Part shown: piece by piece, positions 4,635 through 64,000 of the stretch | Position numbering within the stretch: position 1 is the first letter of the stretch | How the letters are laid out: each line of letters opens with the position of its first letter | NCBI GenBank assembly: GCA_051294905.1 | Contig: CM119372.1 | Coordinates: 37,326,001 to 37,390,000 of the forward strand | Source: Botryllus schlosseri | Taxonomy: Eukaryota | DNA length: 64,000 bases | Direction: 5' to 3' | Program-made: the position numbers and the translations under genes | Notes under the pieces: model-generated | What the model was told of the DNA's origin: nothing | The model's input: only the letters and a program-made list of their open reading frames with translations | Database searches by the model: none

Positions 4635-7600
4635 GACGATTTTCATTTTTGCTCACGAGCGCCGCCATTATGGTAAAGGGATGGCGGTCGGTGAATCTTG
4701 CTTCGTGCGCGCAGATGGCAGTTTTGGAGTTGGTTTCGCTATTTATCTCTGTGGGTTGTCGATATGATGCAGTTCAGGGTATCGATGCTAAATTAAGATG
4801 AATAGCATGTTTATTATTAGCATGGAATCTTTTTGTTAGCGAAAAACAGCCGATTTCAGCCGTTTCACGAATTTTTTCGGTAGGCTACTGGTTTGTGACA
4901 ACTCACGAGAAGTCGAGAACATCATGGCATATCAGCTTTACTTCTAAGATAATAATAGTGCATATATATTTGTAAAATGGCTGGTCATAACGGATATATT
5001 TATGTAATTTAAATTAGTGAATTTATTCCTGTAATATAGTTTTATGTTTAATATGGACAGGTTGATTTCTTGCAAAGAACTTTTACGATAAACAATCTAT
5101 ATATTATTATACTGTATTGCCTGTGAGATAACAGGCATGAATGCAGATGCGGGATCGTGGACTGTGACAAGAAGATCACACTATGATTGTCGTGTGCTGA
5201 AATGCAACAACGACTAAGAAAGGCCATGAAACTATCTTTTCACATGAAGATATGGATATAAAAAATTAGATCTGTAGTCGAGTTGAATTTTGAAGTGAGT
5301 AAATTACCAGAAGTGTTTCAATCCGATCATACTCTCTCTTGTTCTATCGTGATAATGCTGCTATTGACTTTTGTCTAGATAACTGGAAATACACGTGTTT
5401 GTGGGGAGCATTTCAATGACGAGGATTATAGACTGAAGTCTTGCGGACGTCACTATTAGAAAATTGGAGCAGTTCCTGGGATACTCAAGTGGACGAAGTC
5501 AACAACACCATCAAGAAGGGTGTTGCACAGGCATCAGAGGTGAGATTAATGTAAACTGACATGATATGAAGCTACAAATTTCTTTCAATTCTTAACAATG
5601 ACTGGTACATGGTAGATAGATCTCTTATGTGTGAGAGATTCCAATATTGTTTAACACTATTTCGCGAACTTGGCACATCAATTGGGTAGAAGGGAAAGTC
5701 CAATAACTACATGATACTGCCTTTCCAACTATATGTAGACTGTCGAGTGCATTGCAGCCAAAAATATTACTTGCACAACTCAGTATCAGGAAATATGCTT
5801 GGCCATTCTAGGACCGCGTAAAAGTATTTCTGGTTATTATGATTAGTGCAGCAAAATCCCGAGCTCAAACCCAAGCTGCTGTATCACCCGAACAGCGACA
5901 AACAATATGACCGAACATTATTAGTGATATTAGAGTGTGGCAAGCAGACAGACATTTTATCCAATTCGGCTCGTTTGTTATTCGGGTGATTGTTTACTTT
6001 AAATTTTTTTCTGCACTTGGTTATGCCACCAGCACTAACTATTTAATAAAAGGAACTCTATTACGTGAAAAACGTAGATGTACTTGAATAACTGCCATTG
6101 TTAGTTGATCGTAAATATACCGTAACTATAAATGTTTTCATTTCTGTCGGCATGTTATTAATAGGGCACAATGATTCGAGTACTCGGATCTGAATCGAGT
6201 ATTAATTTCAATGATTCGAATCGAGTAGTAAAAACAATTTTTTCGAGTACTGAAATTACAAGCTCCTCATCACTGAAAGTTAATTTATCAACGAAAATTA
6301 TAGTTGCGATACTCTTTTCCTTTGTGGAAGCCTTGAAACCTTGATTACCCGTATCGCAACGCACGAAACATAGTAAAAAGCTACCAACGTTGCTGGAAAT
6401 AACACATTTCTGAAGTCATGATCATCCCACATTATGTCACAAAGTACAATGAGATCGGTATGGTCGAAAAAATATTTAAGTACCTTTAACGTGATGGATA
6501 AGAGGTAATATATTCTTTGTGGTGGCAAAAAAGGTACATATTTGAACTTTGACATATTACATTCTGTTATGACGTAATAATGAGTAATACTCGAATACTC
6601 GACTCGATGCTTAATACGTGATTCAGAATCGAATCACTCAGGTACTCGATTTTGCCCAGCCCTAGTTATTAATGCTTCTAACTGTATTTGTAGTGGACAT
6701 CATACTCCAGAAGAAATTCCTGGTCCAAGTAGCACTGATCAGATTCCACATCTACAACAGCCAATGCTGGATCACGCGTATTGTGAAGAAAAATCATCTA
6801 AAGCAAAGGGAATAATTCAGGATTTAAATAACGAGCTGGAGAAGCTGATTTTGTGTACGATTCAAGGCATCCGATACATGTTTCTGTATTATTCTGGATT
6901 TTCTAGTTATGGATTTGTTTTGAAGTTTTTGATATAGTCTCATCAACAGCTACAACTGTACCACTTTTATCAGCTGTCAAAAATTATCTCAGAAGTGGTA
7001 TAGTGAAGAATTTCAAGCAAAGGCAAATTCAAAAACCATACCATTGCAAGACGAACTGTTTTCATTTGTTTGTCGGATTCACCAAGGCTTTGGAGTGAAA
7101 GACGTTGGTGTTCGATTCAACTTGTCTACTGCATCTGTTAGCGGGTTATTGATAACTTGGGCAAACATTCAACAGTTCTGTTGGGTATTGTATATTGACA
7201 AATTTATCCGCCATTTGCTAGGAGCTAGCCAGTTATGCACAAAGCTATCCGGTACACAACTGGGAGTGAGCGACTTGGTGTCCACCGTGCGGAACAGAGT
7301 CTAAACCCAGGTAAGATCAGGTGCCCATGACCCTTTCATATCCCGCAAATGGGTTCTTGACAGTTCTAGTTTCATCATCAGATTTCGAAATATCCTTGTC
7401 GATCATCGATGGTCCGTGTCGTTGTGGCTGGTCGATGAGGCACATCTGCACCTGGAACATAAAATACTGCAGCAGCATATGGTGCACTTGACAATCATCG
7501 AACTCATCAACTGGAAACATTGCAACGACAGCAATTTTTAGTCATATTTTAAAGCTTCGTATTTGTTTGTTACTAAACAATTTGTTGACTAGTTATTTGA

Positions 7601-8278
7601 TTTTAGTTGCCAGCACAATTTTTTGTTTTGACAATATGCAATATCAAGCATTGACCCCAACAACACTGCTGATACTGACATGCTCAACTCATCAGGATCA
7701 CAGATGATACTTGAAAAGTCACGAAGTCTAATTCTCAAAGTCAGTTAGGAGCCTATAATTTGAGTGCTTGAATAAATATATCAAGGACCTCTGCTAGTAT
7801 AAATTACAACATGCCTCTAAAATCTCATATGTGAGATTCAGCAAATAATTTATAGCCTTTGCTATTTCCATTACCTCTCGATTCACTGGCAATCCTGCCC
7901 ACGTCGGCAAAACTGAACTCTGGTAGATCCGTCAACAAGTACGAAAATACAAGCTCCATACATTGCTGTGTAAATTGTTACTGTTACTAGTGACATCAGA
8001 AGAGAAGTCAGCAGCAGTTCAGTTAAAGCAAAAATACAGTCCCACGATAAGGCTTCTCAAACAGCTATAATGAAGAAGTAGGATCTGGATTTCGCTAGCA
8101 ATGACATGAAATCAGGCATTAGTGGTGTTGCAATAACCAACAACTCATGCATTCGCAGTAACGAGCTGCCATAAAGGGAAAAGAACTGCAATATTTCTGC
8201 ACACAATGGTAGCCTTATGGAGGCAAAATTACGACCGCCATCCCTTCATAGGTGGCGCTAGAGCGGTGAGAATCGTCC
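4635..8278 (+). mobile_element. Decayed ISL2EU-like (PIF/Harbinger-related) DNA transposon with THAP domain
   Basis: Imperfect TIRs of about 65 bp (gacgattttca..gcgcc..aagggatggcggtcg versus cgaccgccatccctt..ggcgct..tgagaatcgtcc) with AT on both sides. THAP remnant NTRVCGEHF..GAVP at about 5385-5495. Transposase HTH remnant LQDELFSFVCRIHQGFGVKDVGVRFNLSTASVSGLLITWAN at about 7044-7170. Confidence 0.75.
6162..6664. mobile_element. hAT MITE (CTCGA-rich family), copy A
   Basis: Ends tagggc...cagcccta; perfect TSD gttattaa; inverted homolog at 12130-12628. Confidence 0.85.
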
Positions 8279-8308
8279 ATTGTGGCACGTCAAAGGTTCA
8301 CTAGCTGC

Positions 8309-9440
8309 CAGCCCCGTAACTGCCGCACCCCAAACCCCCCAATTGGGGGGGGGCGAGCTCGAAGGGGACCCAAATTTATTTCGTGAATTAGCATAAATCA
8401 TAGAGTATTTTTTGAAAATTTATGCAATTTTTTTCAAAATTTTTTCGCGCTGTATGTGCGCGAATTCAAGTAGCCATTAATCTTTAGTATTGAGTATTGG
8501 GCCATTAACGCGCCCCGACCCACCAAGACATACAATCAAGTTTTAGGCCATATAACATGCGACTCCAAGAAGTGTGCCAGAACGATCGGCAGCGAGAAAA
8601 CCTTGGCCGAAAAGGTCTCAACCTCACAAGATAAATACCATCCCGCTGGGAAAATTATTATGCCAGTGAAGAAATACAAATTTGAAATCATGTGCGTTTC
8701 TTAGTTTAGAAACCTACGTTTGGGCGATTCTATATTGATATAGCAGACTGGAAGTCACGAAATAACATCATGTAACGAGAAGTCATATCAACAGGTCCGC
8801 CCGCCCCAAGATCTTTAATTATTATTTACGGGCTCTCCCGTTTTCAAGACACTTCACTCAGCTCTACTGGTAAATCTAATTACGTGAGTAGAGAGGACAA
8901 TAAATTGATAGCATAATATATATGCAATCGCCGATCTGATTGACCGATTGTATCATAAATTATAGAGAATTTTCGCGCATCGCGCTGGTTCACAATACAT
9001 TACAGATGATTTCGTGACAAACACGAACAACGTGATGGGGGGGGGTCGTTTTATCACCCTATGGGAGCCCAATACCCACGTTTTTTGGGGCCTGACGAGG
9101 TGCTGTTTCGTTCCTGCCAACGGGTATACGCCCGACACCTCACTCAGCTCTACCGGAAAATCTGATTACGTGAGCAGAGAGAAGATAAAAATTGATAACA
9201 ATATATATGCAATTCCCGATCATATTTACCGATTCAATTATGAATTCTAATAATTTTCCGCGCTTGGCGCGCTTAGGCGACAAAATCTGTTTCACTAAAC
9301 AAACTCTCAAGGAATCTGATAAATAGCGATAAAGAGTCTGTCGCCGAAGGGGGGTCTGGGTTCGGTTCGGTCTATAACCCTATGGGGGGCCCAAGACCAA
9401 AGTTTTGGGGGAGGCCTGACGAAGTGCTGTTACGGCCCTG
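8309..9440. mobile_element. hAT-like non-autonomous element with GC-rich ends
   Basis: TIR cagccccgtaac/gttacggccctg; TSD ctagctgc/ctagctgt; contains a partial internal duplication. Confidence 0.75.
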
Positions 9441-10118
9441 CTAGCTGTAATGTTATAACCCGACAGTTTGACGATGTCATGATGCATCCCTCTCGCATGA
9501 TGTCTATAGCTCATTATTTTAACAAATTATGCCCGGCACAAAAACAATGATTTTTTTTTCGTGTCAAGCGTGAATGGTACAATAGTAAATAACATTTTCA
9601 CGATGTTTGTGGAATGCCTGTCTGCAAGCTCCCGTCAGAGAAGGCCTACTTGGAAATTATACGTTTAATATCCCTATTACTGATGCTGCGGCCCGCGGCG
9701 TCTGCTAAACTAGGAAATTGGCCCGCGAGCACATTTGAGTTTGAGACCTTTGATCTAGACTAGAGTCTGTCAGCCGTTACTAAGATCGGATGCATCAACG
9801 AAGACATAGGTGCCGCCGTGTCGGCTTGTGACGCCATAAGATGTCCTTGTCGATTGTCGACAACATCACAGTTTCACTTGAACGCTCTTAACACCATACC
9901 ATCGCTGTGTGCAGCATTAAAATTCTGATGCGGCATTTCAACACCAGACTGCACTCGTTAACATCAAGCCATACAGCTGAATTCAATCTTAAATGTGCGA
10001 TTATTATTCAACTATAACTGTAGTAAAAGCAATATGGGCGCATATCGCGACCTAATCAATAGAAATCCGACTTGTAGCAAATAGCTAATGGTTTGAAATT
10101 CGATATTCGTGTACTCGT

Positions 10119-10255
10119 TACCAGTCCATCCAGTTTCGATCAAGTTTATTGAAATAGATTATTCTCCCGTTGATACGAATCGAATAAAATCTGAACTGGT
10201 GGCACGGAGAATCACATGTTTCATTAAGATTGCAACTTAAACACTGTGCCATGCA
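10119..10255 (+). repeat. 137-bp direct repeat, left copy (LINE target-site duplication)
   Basis: taccagtccatcc...cactgtgccatgca is identical to 11948-12084. Confidence 0.95.
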
Positions 10256-11847
10256 AGTCTGCGGCCGTACTATTCTCTAGACGACGTAAATTACCTGAAG
10301 TGAAATTGGTTTTTAATGATGCTGCGGTTCACACAAAAAATGAGTATAAATATCTTGGGGTTACGTTTGATGCTAGATTAAGCTACAGAGCACATTCGAG
10401 AATTGTCACTGAAATCTGCACCAAGCGTCTTAATCTACTGCGCCTTCTTAGTGGCACATCTTGGGGTGCGTCCAAAGACTGTCTCCTGACCCTATATAGA
10501 GCATTAATAAGATCGGTAATTGAATATGGATTCGAGGCGTACATGTTCGCCCCTAAATATGTGATCAGATCAGTGCAAGCTGTTCAAAATGCCGCACTCC
10601 GACTTTGCTGTGGAGGTATGCGTAGTACCCCGATATACTCTTTGCAACACGCGTGTAACGAGCTGCCAGTTCACTTACGTCATTTACAGGCCTGTTTGAA
10701 GTTCCGAGGAAATATATTATCCGGCAATGATCACCCCTGTCGATCTCTCGTACAACAATCATGGCATGAGATTTTCCCATCGCATTCCTTCAGAACATTT
10801 AATATGGTATCGAACATACCTGCCGTGAGGTATATATCTATATACAAGTCTGACACTTTTCCCATCTCACCATGGGAAGACATTCTAGACTGTCGCGTAG
10901 ACGTAAGTATATCGTTGATGCTCCGAAAAACTGACCCCCCAGCAGTTACCAAATTGGTAAGTGAGCAATACATTTACGATTATTATAGAGAATGTATCAA
11001 AATATATACTGATGGTTCAAAAACGGAGATTGGGTGTGGAGCCGCCTTCTACGTGTGGGACGAGGGTGTGTCGAAAAATGTATCACTAAACCACCATTTA
11101 TCAGTATTTTCAACAGAGCTCATAGCTATACAGGAAAGTCTCAAATGGATTCAAAGATACGACACTAGTAACTATGATATAGTTATCTTATCCGATAGTC
11201 TGAGTTCCCTACAAGCTATCCGATCACGCGTATTAAATAACATTATTGTTGCAGACATAATACTCCAGTGTACTGATTTGAAACGCCGAGGCTTCAACAT
11301 CACTATGCTGTGGATTCCAGGCCACTGTTCAGTGGGGTGCAATGAAATCGCAGATGCGCTGGCTAAATCAGCCGCGCTGCGTAGAATCGGTGAGGATCAA
11401 GTTGAACTGTCCACCAAGGAATATAAAAGTGTTGTGTCGGAAGTATGCCGAAGCCTGTTCAAAGAAGAATTCAAGCAAGTGGATCAGGAATCGCAATACA
11501 GAAGAATTTTCTCACCCAATGCGGAATCGTACCAAACGTATCCCAGCGAAGAAACAACAAGGAGAGCTTCCTCTGTCCTATTCCGATTAAGGACCGGACA
11601 TTGCAAACTCAATTATCACTTGCGCAAATTGCATTGTCACCCAAATGGATTATGCGAAGATTGCCAAGTACCCGAGACGGTAGCACACTTTCTACTTGAA
11701 TGTAGAAAGTACGATCGACATCGACAACATTTGCGGGACAATGCGCGGTTTCACAACGTACCAATGGAAATTGAACTATTGCTCTCTAGCCCTTATACCA
11801 GTACACCAGTAATTGAATTTGTCATATTATCTGGTAGAGAAATATGA
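10246..11847 (+). CDS. LINE ORF2 fragment: RT thumb, RNase H and C-terminal CCHC knuckle
   Basis: KYLGVTFD, LSGTSWGA..LLTLYRALIRSVIEYG; RNase H motifs IYTDGSK, STELIAI, LSDSLSSL, WIPGH..GCNEIADALAK; CEDC..ETVAHFLLEC. The first codons come from the flanking repeat, so this is not a true start. Confidence 0.9.
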   Translation: MPCKSAAVLFSRRRKLPEVKLVFNDAAVHTKNEYKYLGVTFDARLSYRAHSRIVTEICTKRLNLLRLLSGTSWGASKDCLLTLYRALIRSVIEYGFEAYMFAPKYVIRSVQAVQNAALRLCCGGMRSTPIYSLQHACNELPVHLRHLQACLKFRGNILSGNDHPCRSLVQQSWHEIFPSHSFRTFNMVSNIPAVRYISIYKSDTFPISPWEDILDCRVDVSISLMLRKTDPPAVTKLVSEQYIYDYYRECIKIYTDGSKTEIGCGAAFYVWDEGVSKNVSLNHHLSVFSTELIAIQESLKWIQRYDTSNYDIVILSDSLSSLQAIRSRVLNNIIVADIILQCTDLKRRGFNITMLWIPGHCSVGCNEIADALAKSAALRRIGEDQVELSTKEYKSVVSEVCRSLFKEEFKQVDQESQYRRIFSPNAESYQTYPSEETTRRASSVLFRLRTGHCKLNYHLRKLHCHPNGLCEDCQVPETVAHFLLECRKYDRHRQHLRDNARFHNVPMEIELLLSSPYTSTPVIEFVILSGREI

Positions 11848-11947
11848 CACTGGAAATTCTATAGTATAGATCTTTTGATTTTGAAATGGCATGGTGCAAA
11901 AAACCATTTGCAGTTATACGCACCATTTCCAATTATACATACATACA
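10256..11947 (+). mobile_element. 5'-truncated non-LTR retrotransposon of the I group (I/Nimb-like)
   Basis: Uninterrupted ORF2 C-terminal half, short 3' UTR with a stem-loop (tggtgc...gcacca), and a (TACA)n tail. Flanked by identical 137-bp direct repeats. Confidence 0.92.
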
Positions 11948-12084
11948 TACCAGTCCATCCAGTTTCGATCAAGTTTATTGAAATAGATTATTCTCCCGTT
12001 GATACGAATCGAATAAAATCTGAACTGGTGGCACGGAGAATCACATGTTTCATTAAGATTGCAACTTAAACACTGTGCCATGCA
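11948..12084 (+). repeat. 137-bp direct repeat, right copy (LINE target-site duplication)
   Basis: Identical to 10119-10255; starts directly after the (TACA)n tail. Confidence 0.95.
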
Positions 12085-12129
12085 CGTTGCGCCGTGCCCG
12101 TAACGAATTTAAGTATGCACATTTACAAG

Positions 12130-12628
12130 TAGGACTGGGCAAAATCGAGTACCAGAGTGATTCGATTCTGAATCACGTGATATGCTTCGAGTCGAGTCGA
12201 GTATTCGATTATCACTCATTATGACGTCATAGCATAATACCCAAAGTTCAGATATGTACCGTTTATGCGACCACAAAGACTATAACGCCTGTTATCCATC
12301 TCATAAAAGCTTCTTTGGTATTTTTTCGACCATACCAATTTCATTCCACTTGGTGACAATGCTGTGGGATAATCATGACTTCGGTATGTGCTACATCCAG
12401 TCACCTTCGTCGCTTTGTAGTATATGTTTCGTATGCTACGATACCGCCAATCAAGGTTTCAAGGCTTCAACAGTATCGAAACTATAATTCTCGTTGATAA
12501 ATTAAATTTCAGTGGTGAGAAGCGTGTAATTTCAGTACTCGAAAAATAATATTTTACTACTCGACTCGAATCATCAAAATTAATACTCGATTCAGATTCG
12601 AGTACTGGAATCGTTGTGTCCATCTCTA
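12130..12628. mobile_element. hAT MITE (CTCGA-rich family), copy B
   Basis: Reverse-complement homolog of 6162-6664; TSD tttacaag/tttccaag. Confidence 0.8.
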
Positions 12629-13775
12629 TTTCCAAGTCACAGTGCGCGATAATTCGGGAATACTATAGTATATCAATCAGACAAGAAGAATGAATACACG
12701 AAACAGATGAATACAAATTGGAAATCACATTATCAAATTAGTAATTTGTCTCCAACATAAAATACGACGGGGTTCTGACATCGCATTTAGTAGCTCGCAT
12801 CGCGACAATTGTTTGCTGAGTGTAACGGCGTTTTGGGCTACTCTTCTGCCATCTCCTAATTATGCTCAAAATCCTTACCTGAGTGAATGACGATCATGCG
12901 CAGAAATGAATTCCAATTCGTATGCATACACAATAACACTGTCCAATTTCGAGCCGGATTAAAAAAACTACCACGGATGAACCAGCTGTTCATCCGATTC
13001 AGAGCAACGATGATATGGTATTTCTTGGCGGCTGCTCGTCCTATAGACATGTGCAACGAAATCACGTTTTCATCCTCTGTCCCATTTCGCGTAACCCATA
13101 TTGATCATTATATTCGAACCGGTCAATTGGCCAACAAGGTTGTGCTGATGATAAACTTGCGGGTATGCCGAATACCCATAATAATCACAGGCATATCTAG
13201 CATACCGAGGTTCGGCGATCCTGTATGAAGATTGACCATCTTAATCTGAGATTGAACATATATGACTTCTCTGCTGTGAAATCCCCAGGAACATGGTTAG
13301 TCGGAAAAGGTAGCGCCAAAGATTCAAAAATTTATAATTTCGCGAAGGGCTGCTGTTGAGTTATGTGAATTCAGCAGCTATGGTTGTTGCATATATAATG
13401 ACATCTTATGAAATACGTCAGAGCCGAAGCTACTCCTCAAATAACTGGCTCCAGCTCCGGTGAAAATGCACGACTCCGGGGCTCCGGCTCCATGCTCCGG
13501 CCCGAAGCCCGGGATGTAGGTATAGATATTGGGACGTTCCCAATGCGAGTGACTGTCCCAGAAGTAGGTACTTTGCCGTGTTATGATTGCTGTATGGGTT
13601 AAGTAAATCGCATACCTGCCAATCAGTGACTATGTTTTCGTGTCTCCTACATCCTTAAATCGAGGCCTGACGTTAATTACACATATATAATATAAATATA
13701 TTTAGCAATTCTCACTCTCTCTCTCCAAAAGACCAAGTTTTACGAGTACCATGTCTAGATAATCCCAAAATCGAA

Positions 13776-15027
13776 GTTGCCAATCTGCGGCAGTAGAAGG
13801 AAATTTATGCGGGCGGCCGTTGACACTTAATTCGATTAGGATGTGATGGCGGCCGTCAATATGCAAATTCAATTTACGAATTGAGTCCCTAATTAATGAG
13901 AGGTTTCAATTAATATTTAAATTTTCTTCGCGCTTCGCGTGGTTCAATGCGAATTGATTTTCCATTTTAATATAGTAGTGTCCTTTGTAATCTGAGCCCA
14001 AGAGTACAGATGCGAACAGCAGACGAACATGATGTGCCCCATGAAAAAATACCAATTTATAATCGTGTTTTCTACATCACGAAGGAAATTTGTTTCTGGC
14101 AGGCCTACGTTTGGGCGAATCCAATATATTTCCACTATACCGACAATCCTGATGGAAGTACAACAAATAACTGCATGCAACAAGGACGACTGTTAACATC
14201 CCCTGCATCAACTCTACCAGTGAATCTGATCACATATTCTGAGAAATTATAAATATGTGATAGTGATATGTGAGACTATACTAATTTTAATGACGAAATT
14301 TACTCGTGAGTAGGATTGCATTTAAAACAAAAATCAATTTAAAACAGACATGTTTAAAACAAGGCTCTAATTTAAAACACGTTTTTTATTGTTTTTTTTC
14401 AAAGCCATGACGTCATGAATACTCAATTGTGGCGCCATAGTGGATTTACATTGACAATTGAAAATATAGGGTAAATATAGCTCCTTTGACGAAATATCTG
14501 GACTATTAATGTTGAACCAACTATTTTGAGGGTTCCAACCATCCCATATCGATATAAACCGGGTATATAGGGTGGTAATTGTCGCAGGCTCATACAATAT
14601 GTTTTTTGGAAAGTTTCTACTTGATTACGGCATAATTTTACAACTTGAAAAAAAAAAATTTTTTTTAGATGCCATTATTTAAATTTTAAAACTCTGTAAT
14701 AAACATGTTTTAAACGAAGTGTTTTGAAACACCGTTTGTTTTAAATCCAACCCTACTCATGAATATGAAAATAATTTCGGGCTTGGCGCGACTACAATAC
14801 GAATCCCAATGGCTATTCAAAACATTACTACTCAGGATTTCAGTGCGCACAATGAGCCGATATGAGTGAATAGATTAGTCCGGAGTTTACCGACAATGGA
14901 CATGGAAAGTTTAACATGGGTATTTTGTCTGCAGTTAGTTCATTACGACTATATGAACTGGAATGTGGCCGTAGGCTACATAAGTAATCGAAATGCGGTC
15001 GTATAAAGCCCAGATTGCCCACCACTG
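13776..15027. mobile_element. hAT MITE with a nested MITE at 14311-14755
   Basis: Shares internal sequence with 1-583 and 62546-63266. Nested element taggattgcatttaaaac...gttttaaatccaacccta has TSD ctcgtgag/ctcatgaa; a relative lies at about 31286-31770. Left boundary is approximate. Confidence 0.65.
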
Positions 15028-15756: not shown

Positions 15757-18700
15757 TTACTGACAGTTACTCGTTACTGAAGTTTACCAGGCTATTGGCA
15801 AAATTGATTACCTTGAAAATCTCTGCAGTCAATGTATACGTGGAACTGAATGTTACTGATATCATTCTCGTGATGATTTGACCTGATTCAACCTCGTTCG
15901 CGAGACTGGGGTCTGTCATACGGAAATTGTTGGCCCTAGTACCAATTTCAGTATAGTACATAGTAGGGTAAAAGAAACAACTGACAATCGTAGATAGCCA
16001 CAATATTATAATATATGGCTATGGCTATGCGGCCGGTTTCGCTGTCACGGATATGACTGATGAGTTAGAATATCAGTTTAGGATGTATAATATTGATCGG
16101 GAAACTAGAAATATCAGCGCCGCATGCTAAGTTGACCATTCGTTGATGGCGAACAAGGCGACCTGTAATAGGTTACCGTTACGCGTTACTGCTTTTTCTG
16201 AGATTCGTAGTAAACAACCAACGCACAACTGTGACATCACAAGCAGCGTCTGGTTAAGTAAGTAGGGTAAGTAGTGACAACACATGGAATAAATATCAAT
16301 TTATACGCAATTAGATGGAAAAGAAAGGGATTAGATGTAATGATTAATGTTTCTGTATGAAAAAACGACCTAAATCAAACATTTTAACGCAGTGGCCAGT
16401 AAATATTATTGGTCGCATGTCAGCGGATGAATACCACTTATTTCGAAATCGTTAGAGTGTCGGATCGTCGTCTGGCCATTATTGAGATTTGAGCAAAGGG
16501 TGCAGCGAAGCTTTTTGACTTGAAGAAAGTGGACACGATCGTTGAAGATTCCTAGGAATGCTGATTGGGATACGCATCGTAAAAGGTACAGTACTACATA
16601 GTATTCGTTACCGTGAATATCTACGACTGTGCGCACCACCGGGATGACTTTGATTTCATGATTGAAATACTTCATTCGCCGCATTTTCTGTCCTATTTTG
16701 GGATGTTAGTCGACCTATATACTGACCTGTGACACCACATACTCTGCCACGGAGTAGTCGAAACTGTTGGCATGTTTATGTCATTTTTGGGCCATAGCAT
16801 AGAGATGTTTCCATCCACTGCTGGATTTGTTTGGCACACATGCCACCTCAAATGATGAACCTTTTGCTTCAATACATAAGATCAGTGGTTCTCAACCTGG
16901 GGAACGCGAGAAATTGACTACCGTAAGTCTGTATGAATTCTGACTAAACATGTGTTTCGCAACCATTTTCAGAAGACGATTGTTGAAGGTGAAACTTATT
17001 TCGTATTCAAGAAAGCTCGCCAAATTCAAACTCCAGCAGTCGCGCTCAACTACATTTGAGCAAATTTTTGAAATTATTGGAAGATTTAGAGGAATTCCCA
17101 CGTGTAAGTCATTCATTACTTCATAGCTTTGGCAGAAGCCTAATGCTCGTTGCGCTGGGTAGCTGTTGTTAATAGCTGGCGAACTGCACTGCGTAAGACA
17201 GACTTGGATGTAATATAGGTTGCTCGGTTTCACACTCAATTAAGCTACCCTATATCAACACAATTTAATTCAATTCAATTCCAAAACTGATCAAATTGGG
17301 CATTAGTGCTCTTCAAAAATGACTTTTTTTCTCAAATCGTATACTGGCTACTTGATAAAATCGTTAAGTTACCTAATTTAAGCCTACACACAAAATTTGG
17401 TTCAATTCCAGCCAGTAACCGCTTTGCTACAGGAGCAGTAAGTTTATATTTATTATATAAAAATGAATAATAAAAAATTTGAAAATTTTCTGTTCACCCC
17501 ACGAAAGTGTTAGGCTGTCTATAGAAACGATCCTCACCAAATTTGGGTCAATTCCAACCAGTGGAAGCGGAGTTAATGCCGTCTAATAATTTGGATTTGA
17601 ATAAAATAGTATTTACGGTGACCGATTCTTTGTTTATTTATTATAGTTGCGCTCACCGTAAATACTATTTTATTCAAATCCAAATTTTTCGACGGCAATA
17701 ACTCCGCTTCCACGGGTTGGATTTGAACCAAATTTGGTGAAGATCGTTTCTATAGACAGCCTAACACTTTTGTGGGGTGAACAGAAAATTTTCAAATTTT
17801 TTATTATTTATTTTTATGTAATAAATAGAAACTTACTTCTCCTGTAGCAAAGCGGTTACTGGCTGGAATTGAACCAAATTTTGTGTGTAGGCTTAAATTA
17901 GGTAACCTAACGATTTTATCAAGTAGCCAGTACGATTTGAGAAAAAAAGTCATTTTTGAAGAGCCCTATTGGGCATGGCAGTACAGAACGACGCCTTGTT
18001 CTCTGTAGTCACTACCAGCATTAGGTCCGGTCCAATGTTTTTTTGCTATTTTCAAACAAGTTTGGGGAAATTTGTCAAAAATGTTAAAGACTGGAATACG
18101 TATTCAAACTTGGCGTAAGACATACCATATGTATACTATTAGATCAGGGATGGGCATTGGGCAACCTACTGCCGTGGATTGGAATTTGTGCGGCCGTCAG
18201 CACCTAATTCAATTAGTATGTGTTAGCATCCGTCGAAATGCAAATTGAAATTACCAATTCACTCCCAATTTTTTTAAAGATTTCAATTATTCTTGAAATT
18301 TTCTTCGCGCTCCACGCAATTCAACATAACTTAATTTTTCTATTGTAATTTAGTCCCGCCATGTAAATCTGAGCAGGAATCAGAATGGTGTGCTCCTCAC
18401 AAAATAAATTTTTTATTGTACATTTGGGCGATTTCAATATATTTCCACCACCGATACGATGGACAATCCTGATCGGGGGTCAAGAAATAACAGCATGCAA
18501 TAAAGTGCATGACTAATAATAATTGGCCCACACGAAGATGCAATATCATTTATAAATTGCCCGCTGCATTTGATAAAGTAAGTCATTAATCTCTGCTATA
18601 TCATGTGAAAGGCGGAGCCGTCACCACACAATGTACTAGTACCGGTACTTCAAAAATTGTTATATTTTTGTTACCCTATTTATCTTAGTAGTCTTTATTA

Positions 18701-19306
18701 TGTCATGTCTAGGTTAGGAACTTTGCTTAATATAGCGACTTAGGCATGCATTCTTTTTAGTGGAACTGCAAGATACTAGCTACACAGAAGGAATGAGGAC
18801 GAGAAAAAGAAACAACTGGAAGTTTGGCCGATGGTGGGAGACCACTCGTGTTACTGCATGTCTCCTAAAGAAGAATTAGACCTCCAGCAGCAATACTTTT
18901 CCATCGATAATCTTCTCATCGTAAATCATGAATGAATATACAGTTTGTACCAATGTCGTTTGGGGGTGTGAAGAAGCTTTTGCGATATTTTAGCATCGGG
19001 TTGCTTTGCGATAGGTATGGGATGTACGTGAATTTACAAGGTGGTATGTAATCCTGATTTACACAGACAGCATGTATGTAGGTAGGCGGTAAAATTACAG
19101 TCTGAGTGGCAAATATACAGGACAAAATGTAGATTGGATCTACCGGAGGTGACTGTAACATTACAGTCTGGCGTGTAAAGTGAGATTACCGGACGAGTGT
19201 AAGTTAAATTTACATTGACTAACGGTAATGTTAAATTACCACGAAATGTCTGGCTACCGTGCTTCCAAACATTTCGCGGTAAATCGAGGTTTTTTTTTTT
19301 ACATTG
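15757..19306 (+). mobile_element. Non-autonomous CACTG-ended (EnSpm/CACTA-like) element, copy 1, left end truncated
   Basis: Colinear and highly similar to 59509-64000. The right end ggtaaatcgaggttttttttttttacattg matches the reverse complement of cactgtaaaaaa..gatttac at 59346. Confidence 0.7.
17304..17968. mobile_element. Palindromic hAT-type MITE (665 bp, arms about 317 bp)
   Basis: Ends tagtgctcttcaaaaatgac and gtcatttttgaagagcccta; 8-bp TSD ttgggcat. The empty site is visible in the paralogous copy at about 62331. Confidence 0.9.
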
Positions 19307-35787: not shown

Positions 35788-38700
35788 GTAAGTTTGCGCG
35801 GGTGAGGGGAGGTCTAATTTCGTCAGGTCTAATTCCGGACGCACAAGATGGAGTTTCCACGATCTTCTAACTAAGCGTTTTCAAACTTTTCTCAACTGCG
35901 TACCATTTCAATTTCCAGGCGTGCATGACTTAGGCTACCCCTTGAACTGAATCCAAAGTTAACGTACGACTGTCTATAAACTCTATTTTAATGTTTGAAA
36001 GATATACCTCGGTCCAACTCTGAAATATCAACTTAACTTGGGCCATAATAATGGATACAATATATTTGCATTAAGTTTACTTAAAATAACACTGGCTTAA
36101 ATTCTGCTTCAAACACATATATATTATTTAGTCTCGGTGGCTTGGAAAAAGTGACCCTGGTCTGATCCAAGGTGGAATCAGTTTGTCATAAAAACGACTT
36201 CACATTGATCAGTGGCAGTCCCCTAAATTGTAGCCTGTTTATCACTGTGCACAAGCAATACAATCAAGATTCATTCGTATTCAAGGTTCATTGTTACCCA
36301 TACTATCCCTAATGACAGAGACATCATCCGCAATGCGGTGAGAGCAGACGAAGAGGACATATTGATTTTTACCGGATCCGGAGTCACCGGCGCAATCCAT
36401 AAGCTGATATCGGTTTTGGAGCTGACGCAACCGCCTGTGATATTTTGCGGTCCTTTCGAGCACCATTCCAATCTGTTACCGTGGAGAGAAATGAATGGGC
36501 ATGTCAGTATATTAGAATATGCGTGCACAGATGTATATATAGCTGCTGCTACAAATAATTCATGTCTTGATTGATGCGCTATGAATCGATTGCAAAGTTC
36601 CCCATAACCTATATTTCACACCAGCTTATATAGGCATACATATTCGATTTTGCAACCACTTAACATTACTTTGATAAAAGTTATAGTCCACAGACTATCC
36701 TCCCCCACCTTATATGTTGGTCTGTTTATATCCGTCGCAAATGAGAAATATACCCATTTATTTCATTTTATTCGGGCTACTCACACATTCCTCTTCTAGA
36801 TGGTGGACATGGCCGAATTTCCACCGTCGCGATATAGGGGAGATGTGGTACCGATGGATCAAAAATTGCAAAATGATCTCTAGCTCTCAAATCTTCAGCC
36901 GAGAATAGCAGATCTTTTGCTTTCTCAACACTTCGATGCAAGCTCTACCTAACGTGGACATTTACATGAATATCCGCCTTTTCAAAAAATATTTATAAGA
37001 GTTTAAAATTTGTTGCTTGAACGTGTCATCGGTCCCCACCCGGTGGGTCCAAATGCACACGACCATGGGACCTATGAGACATACGCTCAAAAACTCAAAT
37101 TTGTTAACTTGTTTCATTGTGTACTATAATCTAAGCTACATCAAGCCAATGAAAAATGTTTCGTCGCGACCTTCAAGAATACAATAGATTATATCAACTC
37201 AAATGTTGGCATAAAATCATGTTTTGATTTACGCACAAACTTATAAAATTAATGCCACATACATATTATCCGCAAATCGACATTTTGACTTTCAAATACC
37301 TCGTAATAGCGATAAAACACCACGGGTAACTAAGATTTATGGCTTATATATATATGTAGGCGAGTTTCTGCTGTTGAGTGATTAGTTGGTCCATCTATTT
37401 TGCTTGATTTGGCTATGGTACTATAGGTCCCCACCCCATAAATATTGAAATTTACTTGAAAATAGTCCACTCGAGGATGGTATTCATTCAAAAAATATGT
37501 GCCATTATATACCCTGATACAAGCCCTATACTTCACATCAAAAATTACGGCGGGTTTGTTAGTCTGAAAGGTGATATAGATAAATGAAAATGTCGATCCT
37601 AATTTACTTTACACCCCCTAAAACGTAAATCATTCGTCACAGACCCCATAACTCACGCAGGTCGTATTTTTTTGCATGTGAGGAAAGATTCTGTCAGCAT
37701 GTAATTGTAGACAAATTCACGGAGTGTAATCATGGAATTGTCATGGAGAATTTTTCAAGTATTTTCGGTCCCAGTGATCCATCGGTACCACATCTCCCCT
37801 ACATCTTGCACTATCCTGACGTATTTCCCATCCAATTGCTATCGCCACATTCAATAGCGCAGCTCATCTCCTGGCAAACTTTTCTAGATCCATGCACAGA
37901 GTCCAACTGCTTTAGTCTGTTAGCATGAGACTTGGTCAATGGCATAAGTGACGTTTTCTAATTAAACATATCAAAACGAATTTCCTGTAATATAATCCTA
38001 ATCTAATTTATGAAATGTTCCCATGCTCTGTTTAAATTTCCAATCTATTTTCTGTTTTTCCTGAAAATGTTGTATAACTGCTGTTTAGTGTGATACGAGT
38101 CAGTCTCAGTGTACAGACATTTGTCATTTTCGTGCTTATGAGAATTAAGAAATGAGATTTGATATGAAGCGAACTAGATATTCGTTGTGTTTCTTTTGCG
38201 AATCAAGTAGTTCTAATATATAATTTGGAAAAGAGGTATATATTTTAAATTCTTTCATATTGTTGACTACCTGAAAATTATATAGTTGTCGATCCATGCT
38301 CCGCATACCTTTACAAAAGCGGTCGATGAGCAACAATATCATCAGTAGTGTTTCTTATTGTATATTGGTATAGTTGTTCTATCTCGAAGGTGGTACATAT
38401 TGGAGAAGATGCTGACGGGAGGGTGGATATGAGACATCTGGAAATAGCGCTGAAAACGTGGCAAAAATCAGGTCGTCCGATGATCGGAACCTTTTCGGCA
38501 GCCTCGAATATCACAGGTACGTGGTCGCCATTCCTAATGTCCATTCATTGTCCGAAAACTGTAGAAATGGTTTCATCGTGCTGGACCAGGGATTCTTAAA
38601 CTAGGGTTGCCATACGTCCGGAATCTCCCGGACATATCCGGAATTTCACTGTTAAAACTGCGTCCGGGAGGAATTTATAAAATATGCCTAAATGTCCGAA

Positions 38701-53139: not shown

Positions 53140-54134
53140 CTCTAGGCTTTTGTAAGATGCGGCTTATGCGTATCGCATGTGGGGTAGGAGTTTAGTTAAG
53201 TTTCCAACACATAGATAGGATTTCTGGAACGGACCTCGGATGGACGACAACTTGCAACGCATTTGTGTTGGATCGCGGTCATGCTATCTAATAGAAGTGT
53301 CTATCCCGTCGCCAAATATTTGGGTTCGGACCAAGTAAATATTAGCTGTCTTTGCCGATCCTGTCTCTTCAATTCTCTGGTTCGACACCGATCCGACGAC
53401 TACACCTGACTTTTGAAATGGCCGGGATTCTATCCCAAAAATTCCGATAATAATCATCTATTCTAGTTCCGATTTCTATAAACCACAACAGCAGTAGATC
53501 ATTCTGAATGGGTTCAGGATAAATATTGAATAGCGGAACAAATGATACATGACAATAAAAACTCACAGGTTTGTATTGGCGGCTACTGGAGTGGGGTTGG
53601 TAGTGACAACAGTCTTGCTCAGCAATATTCTCAATAGCGATTCTGGACGTACGAAAAAATTACGAATCTGGCTCCGACCCGTCTCCGGCCGTATCAGAGA
53701 AATATAAATCTGGCTCCTGCCATACACGAAAAGATTCGTCCGGATCTCCAGTCAGGCTCCAGTGCATGTCCCTCTCTATTGTACATCCGCTAGTATTATA
53801 TTAATGAGGTGCCCAATACGAATTAAATAGAAGGTAAAATTGTGCACGGAAATAATGATAACAATTTAAATCTGGTTCCGCATCGGTAGAATTTCCAGAT
53901 GCCTTCTTTTGAATATGTAAGAATGGGCACACTAACATAAAGCGCATAAATACGTCTTCTACTATGCACGTGCGACACATAACGTATTCATGACATCGTA
54001 TCCGATAACCATAAGAATCGAATCGACGATGTCCCGATTTAAACCTCAGTAAATTTGAAGAGTTAGGCGACTTCGTGAAACGTTCAGCGGTGCAGGTATT
54101 TCTTTGAGGTTTTGTTCGTGTACAGGCAGGTTCG

Positions 54135-54386: not shown

Positions 54387-57300
54387 GCAAGTTGAATGTG
54401 AAATATTTTAAATACATCGTATGCACTCACTAATATTCAGAAATGTACTTCAACAGGATATCGTTAACACGATTCTGAATTGCGTGAAGGACTGGACGCC
54501 GTCCAAGTTCTTATCGGCAATCTTGATACTTAATTTCGGGACCCTGGGAGACATGTCTAAAGAACTGTGTGACTTTCGTAACCCCGAAGAAATAACCGAT
54601 TACTTTTTCGTCAACTTGGCACATATCCCTATCTTAACGGGGCAGTTCATCGATTGGACGAGAGCAGGGGAAAATGAGATGGATACAGTTGTTGTGAACG
54701 TTACTTCGCTTGTCGCTCTGCAACCACTGACTTGCATGAGCCTCTACTCGGCGGGAAAGGCAGCCCGTGAAATCATGCTCAAAGTACGTAACATTATTTT
54801 AATGTCTAAAATGCATCGCTCAGGCAGTCACATGCCCAGTCAACAAAATGGGAAGCGATCGCCCGGCGTATTACGCGCATTCGATGTCAAAATGATGCTT
54901 CAAAAGAAACAATTTTCGCACTTCAGCCGCAGACTCATTAACCCTTTTGTTGCCGTTCATTAACCCTCTCGCCACTGCAGCTTACAACCGCTCGTAACCC
55001 TATCGCTACCTGAATCATGGTTGCTTTCTGGCAGATATATTAACCTTATGTTGAAAGACATCACAATTTCACAATATGTTTTCATTGTCGTGTTAGTTAT
55101 ATTAAAATCCAGCACGAGCATACATTCAAAATACCGGTCAAATACAAACAGACGGTCATATGAAATGCATAAAACGACACAGTCGAGATATAGAGAGATC
55201 TTCTTTCCTGGACCAGTTTGATACAACTATTCCTGCTCTTGAATTAAAATACAGACAATATCTGGTTTATCAAACAAGTCTGTGCCTTGGCGGGAAGAAT
55301 AGGATCAAGGCAACGCGGAGCTACCATCAGCATCCAGCTCACTGTGTAGCACGCTAACATCATTCAGAACCCAATCGTGAATGATATATCCCAAGTATAG
55401 GCTTAGCCTGGTCTCTGATATCTCGGTAACTCCACTGGCCTCATATTCGTGCGATGTACTGTCAGCCAGATATCATTAGTAGTGATGGACGGGTGATCAT
55501 GGACATTGTCGCTGCAGGTTGAACCAATGCTTAGAGCACGATATTTTATAAACTGTTGCCTTCGCCAACGCTGCATTCTTTTCAATTCACCATCAGACGT
55601 CTACCCACGGATATTTGGGCATATCGCAATCACTTCATGGCTTCAGTCTCCAGTTGTAAAATAAAGGCTTACTATAGCAACGAAACAACTCGTAGGTTAA
55701 CTGACATGAGTATCACAAATGTTAATCAGAAATTATCACAAGACATAGTATTTGGCTGAACAGTTGAAATGCCAACTGTTGTAACGAACATCAACGATTG
55801 TAAATTCCGTCACAGATATTGCAGACACAGACAATAGATTGTTTGACCAAATCCCATGTTTCGTTAATATACATAGCCTACATTAATGAATGCACTAACA
55901 AATGATGTCAAAGCCATAACTATAACACGTCAAGATTCGGCGATGGTCAGCGACACACTTCCGCGGTTTAGCAATAAAATATCAAAGGACCGGTAGTACG
56001 TTTTACGTTCAGAGCACTTTACAAGTATCACGCTGTTCAATACCACCAACCTGACATTTCAGGCCACGGAAAAGTCAAAGTCAGCATTTATATCAAGTCC
56101 TATTTTATAAGCCTAACGCAAGCAAGCAATTACAGTGTAATATGACTGATCTGCTAGTCGAAACACCATTTGGCTACCAATACACATCTAAACAAGCATG
56201 TAGGAAATTTCAATAATAACCTGAACTATCTCCTGCTCAACTTATCTCAACGAAAAACTTCATTCATATTCCCTTCCATCGCTATAATCTCGGAAATACA
56301 ATTCGACGGTACGGACGATAATTCAAACTTCAAGTGTGCAACGGTAAACAACATCCGATGACATATGACATCACAATGACTCCACGCTCAGGTGCTCACG
56401 AACCTGGCAAAGCTTGGCAGAAGAGACGTCACGGTAAAGCCGCGTGATAATCATGCGCAATTTGATTGGTTAATAACGCTGACACCAATCTGCCCGGCCG
56501 ACCGATGGAAAGGAGAACAATCGATCTTTTGAATTCGAGAGCGATCAGTTTTTGTACATCAGAGGTGCCGCCTCACTGTAATGTCAAAACGGTTGCGTTC
56601 ACTTCTCTCCTGCACTGTCTTCGCCTGGTTCGGCATTGAATATACACACTTTTGTTGACTGGGTGGTAAGCGCAGAACTGTAACAAGCGACAATTCGCCA
56701 TAATGAAATTCATGATATATAGCACAAGGAGGTAATCAAAATATTCATCGATTGTACTAAAGAAGACAAAGAAGTACCGACGTAATGTCCTACCCGGGGC
56801 AAGTAGAAGTAACGACAACCAAGACATGTTAAATCAACCTCAAAGTAATTTGTAAATGAAGTCCCGAAAAGTACTCAACTTAGTAGTTTCAAAAAGTAGA
56901 TTTTGTCAAGTGGTTATAGCATACTTTTAGAAGTTAACTTTTCAAATTACAGGATGCAACTTCTCGAATAACGCGAATGACTAATAACACAACTACTAAG
57001 TGAGTCGATATTTAGTCATATAGGGTCTATTCCAGTGGTTCCCAACAGGAGGAACTGTCCCATCTCTTGGGAAATTCAGGGGTTTACGGTGCGGAACTGA
57101 CGCACTTGGAAAAAATTACATATCCATTAGATACATATTTAGGGAGGCGCAACATTGGTTACCAGTTAACTACACTCGACAATTATATCGCGTGCAATGA
57201 CGTACAATAAATCGTTCGCACGATATTGTGGATTACTGGTAAACCCTGAGATATTGGGTTCACTCAAATAAGCAGATAGCCCTGACACCCGGCATATGCA

Positions 57301-59210: not shown

Positions 59211-59854
59211 TTTTCGAAGTATGTATGAGGCATGATTACATCATTGCAATTTGCTAGCTGTCTGAAATACAGTTTGAGTGGTCATTGATTGTGAAACAAT
59301 GACCGAATATAGAGTTAAATATGCATGCAAGAAGGCGCTGTATCGCACTGTAAAAAATCTGGTAGATTTACTGGGAAATCTCTGTCAATTTTGCAACGAA
59401 TTACCGGTCGCAGCCAATAGCTTAGCGTAGCTTGTAATTTTACATTTTGATATGTAATATTACCTCAATTTAACTGTAAATTCAAGTTACCAGAATTTCT
59501 TCGCAAAATTACTGACAGTTACTTGTTACTGAAGTTTACCAGGCTATTGGCAAATTTGATTTGCTTGAAAATCTCTGCAGCCAATGTATACGTTGAATTG
59601 AATGTTACTGATATCATTCTTGTGCATGGTGATTTCGACCTGATTCAACCTCGTTCGCGAGACTGGGGTCTGTCTTACGGAAATTGTTGGCCCTAGTACC
59701 AATTTCAGTATAGTACATAGTAGGGTAAAAGAAACAACTGACAATCGTAGCTAGTGTGGTACACCATGGCCACTATATTATATTATAAGGCTATGGCTTG
59801 GCTATACGGCCGGTCTCGCTGGTTACATTCGTTGTCACGGATATGACTGATGAG

Positions 59855-60729
59855 TAGGACGGTTTTTTTTGACATGTCAAAATTTGTCAAAATTTTGTCA
59901 AAATTGTAGCGTTAGGTCAAAATTTGTCAAAATTTTCCATAAATTCACAAAATTTTTGACGTCTGCATTTCGTTTGCAACGTAGATTTTGCACTGTCGGT
60001 GAACTTATCGTTTGATATTTTACAGCTTGTAGCCTATTTGATAGGCCTACTGTTGTAAACGGCTAATTGCCTGCTCATTGTGAATCATATACGGTCAAAT
60101 GAAACAAGTACAAGTAGGTAAACATGGTGTTATGGTCAACGTACCGCAATATCCTAACTGAAGAAAGACTTCTAGCGCATTGCATCATTCCTATATGAAG
60201 AAGTGCATGATGAAAAATTGTGATGTTGACAACATCGTCAGAATGAGATACAAAGCGTGTCACCAGCAGTGTACGCCGAACTTGAGTGCTATCAGCCAAC
60301 AACTGCAGCTGTTGAACGTCATTGGCAATCTTCTTAGTAAGGACATGCACTTTCTACACAAGAATGTAGGAAAGTATCCTCGTTGTACTACAAAATTTTT
60401 CAATTATTTCTACCATAATACATATTGTGACCAACCACTGGAATTCTTCGTAGGGCCAGATTTCGTTAAAATATTGTTTTTTTGTGTAAAAAGTTGCCTT
60501 TTTCTAAGTCAAAACGTTTTTTCAGCCCAAACTACTTCGTTAGGACAGTCAGTTCCAACCAGAAATGAAGATAATTGGTACAATTTTAACATTATGTGGG
60601 AAAACACCTAATTTGCATACGTTAGGTCAAAATTTGGTCAAAATTCAGTTTTTTTAGGTCAAAAAAAGTCAAAATTTGGATTTTTTAGGTCAAAATTTTC
60701 TTTTTTTTAGGTAAAAAAAACCCGCCCTA
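59855..60729. mobile_element. hAT MITE with gtcaaaattt subterminal repeats
   Basis: Ends taggacgg and cccgcccta; perfect TSD ctgatgag; empty site at about 16057-16064. Confidence 0.88.
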
Positions 60730-60848
60730 CTGATGAGTTAGAATATCAGTTTAGGATGTATAATATTGTTTGGGAAACTAGAAATATCAGCACCGCATGC
60801 TCAGTTGACCATTTGTTAATGGCGAACAATGCGAGGCAACCTGTAATA

Positions 60849-61217
60849 CAGTGGATCCCAACCTTTTTGGACCCATCGCCCCCTTTTCAAGGTCAACACC
60901 GGTCATCGCCCCCCAAATTTTGTGTACCGAAAATTGGGCATACAAACTGTAATCACCGGCGGGTTGACTAAAACAAAAAAATGGTCAAATTTTCGGCTCG
61001 ATGTCTAATTTGACACACTTTTTGTAACTAAATTTCCGTGGGTTGACTAAAAAAAAAAAAAAAAAAGGTCAGCCGTTTTGACTCGTCATCGCCCCCTATC
61101 GCCCCCTTCGCTATTTTCGCCCCCCGTCGCCCCCTTTGACCATTTTCGCCCCCCTGTCGCCCCCTTCGTCATTTTCGCCCCCCTGGCCGGCCAAATCGCC
61201 CATGTTGGGAACCACTG
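60849..61217. mobile_element. hAT MITE (tcgcccc-repeat family)
   Basis: TIR cagtggatcccaac/gttgggaaccactg; perfect TSD ctgtaata; empty site at about 16163-16170. Confidence 0.88.
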
Positions 61218-62545
61218 CTGTAATACGTAACATTAGGTTACCGTTACGCGTTACTGCTTTTTCTGAGATTCGTAGTAAACAACCAACGCACCACTGTGAC
61301 ATCACAAGCAGCGTCTGGTTAAGTAAGTACGGTAAGTAGTGAACAACACATGGAATAAATATCAATTCATGAAAAAGAAAGGAACTATATGTAATGATAA
61401 ATGTTTCCGTATGAAAAAACGACCTAAATCAAACATTCTAACGCGGTGGCCAGTAAATATTATTGGTGGCATGTCAGCGGATGAATACCACTTATTTCGA
61501 AATCGTTCGAGTGTCCTGTCGTCGTCTGGCCATTATTGAGATTTCAGCAAAGGGTGGAGCGAAGCTTGTTGCGCTTGAAGAAAGTGGACGCGATCGTTGA
61601 AGATTCCTAGGAACGCTGAACGGGATACGCGTCGTAAAAGGTACTGTACTACATAGTATTCGTTACCGGGAATATCTACGAATGTGCACACCAGCGGGAT
61701 GACTTTGATTTCATTTGCCGTATTCTCTGTTCTATTTTGAGATATTAGTCGACTTATATAGTGACCTGTGACACCGCATATTCCGCCGCACAGGAGTTGA
61801 AACTTTTGGCATGTTCGTGTCATTTTCGGGCCATAGCATAGAGATGTTTTCATCCACTGCAGGATTTGTTTGGCACGCATGCCGCCTCAAATGAGGAATC
61901 TTTTGCTTCAATACATAATATCAGTGGTTCTCAACCTACTTGGGGAACGCGAGAAATTGACTAAGTCTGTATGAATTCTGACTAAACGTGTTTCGCAACC
62001 ATTTTCAGAAGACGATTGTAGAAGATGAAACTTATTTCGTATTCAAGAAAGCTCGCCAAATTCAAACTCCAGCAGTCGCGCTCAACTTCATTTGACCAAA
62101 TTTGTGATATTCTTTGAAGATTTAGACAGAGGAATTCCCACGTTTAAGTCATTCATTACTTCATAGCTTTGGCAGTAGCCTCAAGCCCGGTGCGCTGGGT
62201 ACCGTAGCTGTTGTTAATAGCTGGCGAACTGCACTGCGTAAGACAGACTTGAATGCAATATAGGTTGCTTGGTTTCGCCCTCAATTAAGCTACCCTATAT
62301 CAATTTAATTCAATTCCAAAACTGATCAAATTGAGCATGGCAGTACAGAACGACGCCTCGTTCTCTGTAGTCACTACCAGCATTAGGATTGGTCTCAGTG
62401 CAACTTACCTTGAAATAAATTGATGTCCTGTTCAATGTTTTTTTTTGCTATTTTCAAACAAGTTTGGGGAAATTTGTCAGAATGGTAAAGACTTAAATAC
62501 AGATTCAAACTTGGCGTAAGACATACCATATGTATACTATTAGAT

Positions 62546-63266
62546 TAGGGATGGGCAACCCGCTGCCGTAGAAGGGAATTTGTGCGGCCGTTGACACCTA
62601 ATTCAATTAGTATGCGTTAGCATCCGTCGACATGCAAATTAAAATTACTAATTCACTCCCAATTTTTTAGAGATTTCAATTAATCTTGAAATTTTTTTCG
62701 CGCTTCACGCTATTCAACATAACTTAATTTTTCGATTCTAATACAGTAGCGCCTTTCTCAATCTGAGCAGGAATCAGAATCCTGTGCTCCTCACGAAAGA
62801 AATTTTTCTATGGTACATTCGGGCGATTTCAATATATTTCCACTACCGATACGATGGACAATCCTGATCGGGGGTCAAAAAATAACAGCATGCAACAAAG
62901 TGCATGACTAGTAACAATTGGCCCACACGAAGATGCATTATCATTTATAACTTGCCCTATATTTTCGAAAGCACTCCCTTCATGAACCCTACCAGTGAAT
63001 CTGATCACATGGGCTGATAAAGGATGAATATTTGACAGTAATATGTGATACTGCTACTATTAGTTGCCATACTTCATGCGTACAATAGGCCTTTGTTAAA
63101 AGTATAAAAGTCCGGAGTTCACCGGGAATGAATATAAACAGATTAACATATAGCCTATCTCTATATTAGATGATGTGATCTTTTTGACATAACGAAAAGT
63201 GCAGGGGCGCAATTTTTTTGGCCATTGCCAAGGGAGGCGCATGTCCAAAAAGGTTGAAAACCGCTG
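62546..63266. mobile_element. hAT MITE shared by both CACTG-element copies
   Basis: TSD tattagat/cattagat; an internally deleted equivalent lies at 18145-18566. Confidence 0.7.
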
Positions 63267-64000
63267 CATTAGATAAAGTAAGTCAGGAATCTCTGCTATA
63301 TCATGTAAAAGGCGGAGCCGTCATCACACAATGTACCAGTACCGGTACTTGAACAATTGCTATATTTTTGTTAGCCTATTTGTCTTAGTTAGTCTTTATA
63401 ATATCATGTCTAGGTTAGGAACTTTTGCCAATATAGCGACTTACGCATGAATTCTTTTTAGTGGATCTGCAAGATACTAGTTACACAGAAGAAATGAGGA
63501 CGAGAAAAAGAAACAATTGGAAGTTTGGCCGATGGTGGGAGACCACTCGTGTTACTGCATGTCTCCTAACGAAGAATTAGACCTCCAGCAGCGATACTTT
63601 TACATCGATAACCTTCTCATCGTGAATCGTGAATGAATATACAGTTTGTTCCAGTGTAGTTTTGGGGGTGTGAAGTAGCTTTTGCGATATTTTAGCATAG
63701 GGTTGCTTTGCGATAGGTATGGGATGTACGTGAATTTACAAGCTGGTATGTAATCCTGATTTACACAGACAGAATGTATGTAGGTAGGCGGTAAAATTAC
63801 AGTCTCAGTGGCAAATATACAGGAGAACATGTAGATTGGGTATACCGGAGGTGACTGTAACATTACAGTCTGGCATGTAAAGTGAGATTACCGGACGAGT
63901 GTAAGTTAAATTTACATTGACTAACGGTAATGTCACATTACCACGAAATCTCTGGCTACCGTGCTTCCAAACATTTCGCGGTAAATCGAGGTTTTTTTTA

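Follow-up and report, generated by a model that had tools for sequence, protein, structure and literature searches.

A young I-group-like LINE in Botryllus schlosseri bounded by a 137-bp direct repeat, probably a true target-site duplication

The direct repeat and the LINE copy it encloses

The stretch of DNA analyzed here (64,000 nucleotides, hereafter the window) contains no undetermined bases (N). Its longest exact direct repeat measures 137 bp, the second longest reaching 75 bp. The left copy (10119–10255) and the right copy (11948–12084) agree at 137/137 positions and mismatch immediately outside each end; the parts of the repeat and of the LINE described below all lie on the + strand. 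Between the two copies sits a 1692-bp insert (10256–11947), a 5′-truncated LINE, and the repeat adjoins both its 3′ tail and its truncated 5′ end. Two identical 137-bp repeats bracketing a stop-free LINE of this length had been described in the original prediction, as had a right repeat starting at a (TACA)n tail with TAC microhomology. Both descriptions were reproduced, the repeat being exact, mismatch-bounded, and the longest in the window, and TAC being present at 11948–11950. A duplication of 137 bp is about ten times the usual LINE target-site duplication (TSD); once the microhomologies at both junctions (3 + 2 bp) are allowed for, its size is 132–137 bp. A multi-kilobase repeat also occurs twice in the window (15757–19297 and 59509–63999), at 84–94% identity and with internal insertions.

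The LINE is read through by a stop-free frame of 539 codons (10228–11847) that ends with TGA at 11845–11847, and the remainder of ORF2 occupies 10255–11847. The element aligns at 47% identity to residues 718–1239 of an APE–RT–RNase H protein of 1239 residues, in which Pfam places RT at residues 517–754. The insert had been labeled an RT/RNase H LINE. The RNase H half of this label held, with a PF00075 domain at 10996–11376 (frame residues 257–383, E 5.1e-09). The RT half needs correction, as only the last stretch of RT remains from residue 718 onward, and Pfam RVT_1 gave no match in the window protein. Alignment to a full-length relative (P0126) places RNase H behind the RT end, and its D-E-D-H-D residues (D252, E287, D313, H356, and D366, numbered from 10258) do not vary among the aligned proteins (16 of 16). 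Because truncation fell within the end of RT, the copy is unable to move by itself; it is non-autonomous, with ORF1, the endonuclease, and most of RT lost.

A protein search in which 8000 candidates were scored returned 306 relatives, the best of them 47% identical. All four full-length relatives, the closest likewise at 47% identity, encode, from N- to C-terminus, an APE endonuclease, then RT, then RNase H. Since its relatives are APE–RT–RNase H proteins, the element looks like an I-group-like LINE. A C-terminal CCHC zinc-finger motif (C-X2-C-X7-H-X4-C) at 11653–11703 recurs in 4/4 full-length relatives checked, and a zinc finger of this kind at the C-terminus is typical of the I group. No RLE endonuclease family was detected in the window ORF, which covers the C-terminal part only, or in the four full-length relatives. 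RNase H behind RT is described in PMC4640811 as a mark of the I group, among others, and the window LINE shares this order, as it shares 5′ truncation with the I-group elements used for comparison.

Between the stop codon and the tail lies an 88-base 3′ UTR (11848–11935), whose predicted RNA fold was not above that of shuffled sequences (z −0.78, 45/200). The (TACA)3 tail follows at 11936–11947. According to a passage in PMC3747384, the I element ends in TAA repeats; the window LINE likewise carries a short-repeat tail, but of TACA. Elsewhere in the window, a decayed C-terminal fragment of a second I-like LINE lies at 53924–54061 (− strand), for which no usable TSD was found. Weak Pfam matches to short-chain dehydrogenase and class-V aminotransferase families, below the curated cut-off, were obtained at 54412–54963 (+) and 36227–36574 (+), in 2 of 35 frames scanned.

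The repeated unit and its junctions in other samples

Public sequencing runs were compared with positions 9500–12700. Three of them (X9, X1, and X10) gave coverage, and a fourth (X15) matched with 0 reads. Contigs of the LINE family from X9 (record 18) and X10 (record 10) match the window from 10254 and carry a further 137 and 912 letters upstream. As these contigs run past 10254, the left unit is not the LINE's own 5′ end. In two of the three covered runs (X9 and X1), the unit was found together with the right flank and without the LINE tail. The contigs concerned, X9 record 24 and X1 record 8, both begin precisely at 11948 and match 11948–12108 without a single difference, which makes the right flank (12085–12108) contiguous with the unit in these samples. 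Before 11948, the two contigs carry a further 104 and 122 letters. Both contigs are tail-free, since any TACA tail would align to the left of 11948 (A in the window).

The left boundary of the unit is crossed at 10119 by a high-copy repeat that covers the first ~30 bases of the unit and continues leftward. Summed contig depth over 10142–10151 is at least 34,000 in X9 and at least 16,700 in X1, versus only 367 and 129, respectively, at 10157. Because this repeat crosses 10119, the left flank and the unit appear to be ancestral neighbors. We therefore favor a one-unit empty allele in X9 and X1, with its left half the conditional part, as a 241-letter piece on the left copy, expected if the left flank were gap-free, is absent among the pieces listed for X9 record 24. 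Similarly, a joint from 10118 to 11948 is absent from what was listed (joints, 15 of 356; loose ends, 18 of 1897; pieces, 24 of 59,809). Of the one-copy allele that the original prediction proposed to look for in other individuals, a tail-free unit with its right flank was seen, and its left adjacency would follow from the repeat that crosses 10119.

The 137-bp unit behaves as host DNA and not as an element-borne repeat. This agrees with the claim of a host duplication, given that family contigs differ upstream of 10254 and unit contigs carry no tail. It is extremely improbable that the unit was duplicated before insertion, with the LINE landing between tandem copies, or that the element carried it as a terminal repeat or 3′ transduction. 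Such an origin would fit the depth over the unit, which in each of X9, X1, and X10 exceeds that of a single locus. In X9 and X1, however, one contig crosses the unit unbroken and enters the right flank, with no tail, where a tandem pair or a tail–unit neighbor would be expected to break it, on the premise that contigs break at points with two neighbors. Nor would a 3′ transduction account for the left copy, given that this copy still adjoins the DNA that was its ancestral neighbor on the left. Tandem Repeats Finder reported no array at the locus.

Summed depth over the right unit was 556 (X9), 1139 (X1), and 47 (X10), close to the LINE-body level, depth being no measure of copy number. Over 10152–10255 and 11961–12067, depth exceeds the single-locus level in the three runs. 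The unit may belong to a low-copy repeat and have diverged look-alikes elsewhere in the genome. A MITE-like repeat of very high copy number occurs at 12120–12621 and 6164–6674 in two inverted copies that are 80% alike, and the repeat that ends inside the 137-bp unit has an end motif of similar appearance. An RNA gene as the insertion target was ruled out, as Rfam returned nothing in 8000–14000 at E values up to 1. The target DNA folds slightly better than shuffled sequences (6/200, z −2.12), but with a nearly open centroid, and we do not claim its fold as a structural cause.

Both junctions are clean, without extra bases. At the 3′ junction, the (TACA)3 tail is continued by TAC at 11948–11950, common to the tail and the right copy (11936–11950 in all); from window base frequencies, a match of this kind has a chance of about 0.018. 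At the 5′ junction, the unit end and the LINE family share CA (10254–10255), a 2-bp microhomology consistent with the match of family contigs from 10254, and relatives read S-K-S-A at this position. The first 13 bases of the LINE (10256–10268) loosely resemble 11 bases of the right flank (12085–12095), with two gaps and one mismatch. This likeness was noticed post hoc and is weak: under an anchored-alignment null with three scorings, its score was reached by 128, 34, and 48 of 4000 random pairs (1–3%). It would fit pairing of the cDNA with the target near the second cut.

These junctions bear on two further explanations. One is an assembly artifact, whether from filled and empty haplotypes being mis-joined or from an uncollapsed overlap. 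The source individual is known here from its assembly alone, and among the pieces listed for X9, X1, and X10 the junctions of the window copy were not seen, both of which leave room for such an error. Yet each junction bears a hallmark of insertion at the scale of single bases, TAC at the tail and CA at the truncation. An overlap error would not set its boundaries at the tail and at a microhomology that matches the family, and the window contains no N; we give an artifact little chance. The other is a pseudo-TSD, in which two family copies that had inserted independently on different haplotypes, at sites 137 bp apart, were merged through a crossover within the LINE or through an assembly that switched haplotypes. 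The same outline would result, with the left junction of one insertion and the right junction of the other. The start of the unit inside a high-copy repeat would suit this route, and PMC5488345 discusses, for HERV-K, a related way in which recombination can yield pseudo-TSDs. A pseudo-TSD nevertheless requires that a low-copy family inserted twice within 137 bp. Both insertions would also leave short TSDs of their own, and the single-junction alleles then expected were absent among the pieces listed, making this origin very unlikely.

The window copy differs from high-depth family contigs at 4 of 1140 positions (X9) and 5 of 1513 (X10), or 0.33–0.35%, which upholds the description of a young 5′-truncated LINE. 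At this divergence, two copies of 137 bp are expected to be identical about 0.4 of the time, and the exact identity of the repeat is unremarkable at such an age. Window-copy letters at 10932, 10949, 11025, 11750, 11852, and 11855 are absent or nearly absent in X9, X1, and X10. Their absence suggests that these samples lack the window copy, although a rare variant may be lost from contigs. We take the insertion to be recent and probably polymorphic. Relative to the other runs, the window copy shows five coding differences, two silent and three residue-changing, which are too few to interpret. In X9, the main LINE contigs have depths of 747–860, versus 58–87 for the two locus contigs. The family seems small, with roughly ten copies as a rough estimate, contig depth not being a copy number.

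X10, filed under another organism label, carries the LINE family at >99% identity together with host repeats, and X15, which has the same label and study as X10, had 0 reads matched. X10 is probably a mixed sample rather than a case of horizontal transfer.

A long duplication, probably from one insertion event

The long duplication around this young I-group-like LINE is real and probably a true TSD, a reading favored by the exactness of the repeat and by its limits, which coincide with the tail on one side and the truncation point on the other. We consider it likely that a single target-primed reverse transcription event of the LINE produced a true, unusually long TSD, a rare outlier in a family that is otherwise ordinary. 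In such an event, an APE endonuclease would first nick the bottom strand at the point opposite 10118/10119. Pairing of the primer end with UAC in the RNA tail would follow, in keeping with the TAC overlap seen at the junction, and RT would copy ~1.69 kb. Copying would stop early, in the RT-coding region, and the cDNA would join the top strand via CA; the truncation point and the CA overlap that belong to this step are both present in the sequence. The top-strand end would lie 137 nt downstream of the first nick, not 10–20 nt, either because a more distant nick was used or because the stretch was unwound. Host fill-in of both gaps would finally leave the 137-bp stretch on each side of the element. 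The prediction had likewise invoked a distant second nick or, alternatively, long fill-in repair; a distant nick followed by fill-in belongs to the standard model (PMC2666801). Where L1 leaves long TSDs, PMC5223499 proposes either strand displacement or an unrelated nick at a distal position, and the placement of the second nick by LINEs is described as still poorly understood in PMC6895275.

The prediction had also treated a 137-bp duplication as surprising in itself. That view is not supported, as long TSDs are an already known rare outcome of LINE insertion and are routine in R9 and Dualen (PMC9977147). In HeLa cells, as many as 10% of L1 events leave TSDs of >100 bp, and in repair-deficient cells the majority do so (PMC5223499). 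Extremely long TSDs accompany 5′-truncated L1 in HeLa, as stated in PMC2912911. For ZfL2-2 in wild-type cells, PMC2666801 reports a 1228-bp TSD in 1 of 25 insertions and describes microhomology at both junctions as common. Human L1 and zebrafish ZfL2-2 offer the closest parallels in outline, as their long-TSD insertions resemble the window LINE in being 5′-truncated, with an intact tail, a TSD of >100 bp, and a distal-nick explanation. These cases come from cultured cells, whereas the window LINE is natural, probably inherited, from another LINE group, and in an invertebrate.

Long TSDs extend beyond these two elements. TSDs near 200 bp are attributed to C. elegans RTE-1, for which our literature search returned no paper, and this case carries no weight here. 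R9 of bdelloid rotifers has a 126-bp TSD (as cited in PMC9977147 and PMC6895275), a duplication length from one insertion similar to that of the window LINE. R9, however, carries an RLE endonuclease and inserts specifically in rDNA, at a fixed distance, whereas the relatives of the window LINE are APE-type and its site lies outside any Rfam family. The LINE Dualen-4b_cRei of Chlamydomonas is likewise flanked on either side by long duplications of host DNA, with a median TSD of 900 bp and more than half of its insertions above 50 bp in the data given in PMC9977147. Unlike the single case in the window, its long TSDs (median 900 bp) are family-wide, and the element carries both RLE and APE endonucleases (PMC9977147). 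Rare TSDs of 111 and 250 bp are mentioned for HERV-K in PMC5488345.

Most long-TSD examples for APE LINEs are from cultured cells, and one genome survey limited its TSD search to 30 bp (PMC2912911); the natural insertion in the window, clean and with a likely empty allele alongside its two junctions, adds usefully to them. Long TSDs also have a small practical side, as they can recombine and remove the insertion (PMC5223499). A single event alters no model, and the observation would matter more if the family did so regularly.

Single outlier or family trait

We regard as improbable the alternative that the second nick of this family habitually falls ~100–150 bp away, with host DNA duplicated at most insertions. 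Family-level long TSDs do exist, namely 126 bp for R9 and a median of 900 bp for Dualen-4b (PMC9977147). The small apparent size of the family, roughly estimated from X9 depths of 747–860 versus 58–87, would make the chance draw of a rare outlier less likely, and the clean junctions without extra bases also suit a regular process. Yet R9 and Dualen have an RLE endonuclease, whereas APE LINEs mostly give TSDs of 10–20 bp, as summarized in PMC6895275. In PMC8090852, the median for Drosophila I elements is 12 bp, versus 137 bp for the window LINE. Ascertainment also counts against a family trait, as choosing among many windows favors outliers. Judging from these base rates of other LINEs, we take a rare outlier to be likelier than a family trait.

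Distant relatives provided a further, weak test. Of 76 loci in genome contigs, 26 match the window ORF; the 13 that reach the C-terminus were examined and the other 63 left out. A long flanking repeat was present in 0 of the 13, the longest exact repeat being 14 bp, although these relatives are only 25–33% identical and mostly come without a 5′ flank. Exact repeats of at least 11 bp across the element occur in 2 of the 13, with more than 1 kb available upstream of ORF2 in only six. The 14-bp repeat, exact and A/T-rich, belongs to distant relative L002, in which it lies just upstream of ORF2 (7629–7642) and behind the 3′ UTR (11748–11761), and is a candidate ordinary TSD. A 26-base 3′ UTR pattern gave 0 matches in metagenome contigs, and protein-pattern scans found no family relative in metagenome, genome, or viral contigs.

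An outside chance attaches to an APE/RNase H family of the I group that routinely makes TSDs of ~100–150 bp in the germline. If true, it would be the first such APE-only LINE as far as our literature search found. That search, with most subscription papers and Repbase outside it, returned no published I-group family with long TSDs. The near-nucleosomal length and the 13-base likeness would then suggest that the second cut is set by chromatin spacing or by pairing between cDNA and target. Roughly ten young, polymorphic copies would in that event form a natural test of where second-strand cleavage is placed. As a separate observation from the searches for relatives, eukaryotic LINE ORF2 contigs (L001–L017 and others) turned up inside many bacterial genome bins, where they most likely represent host contamination.
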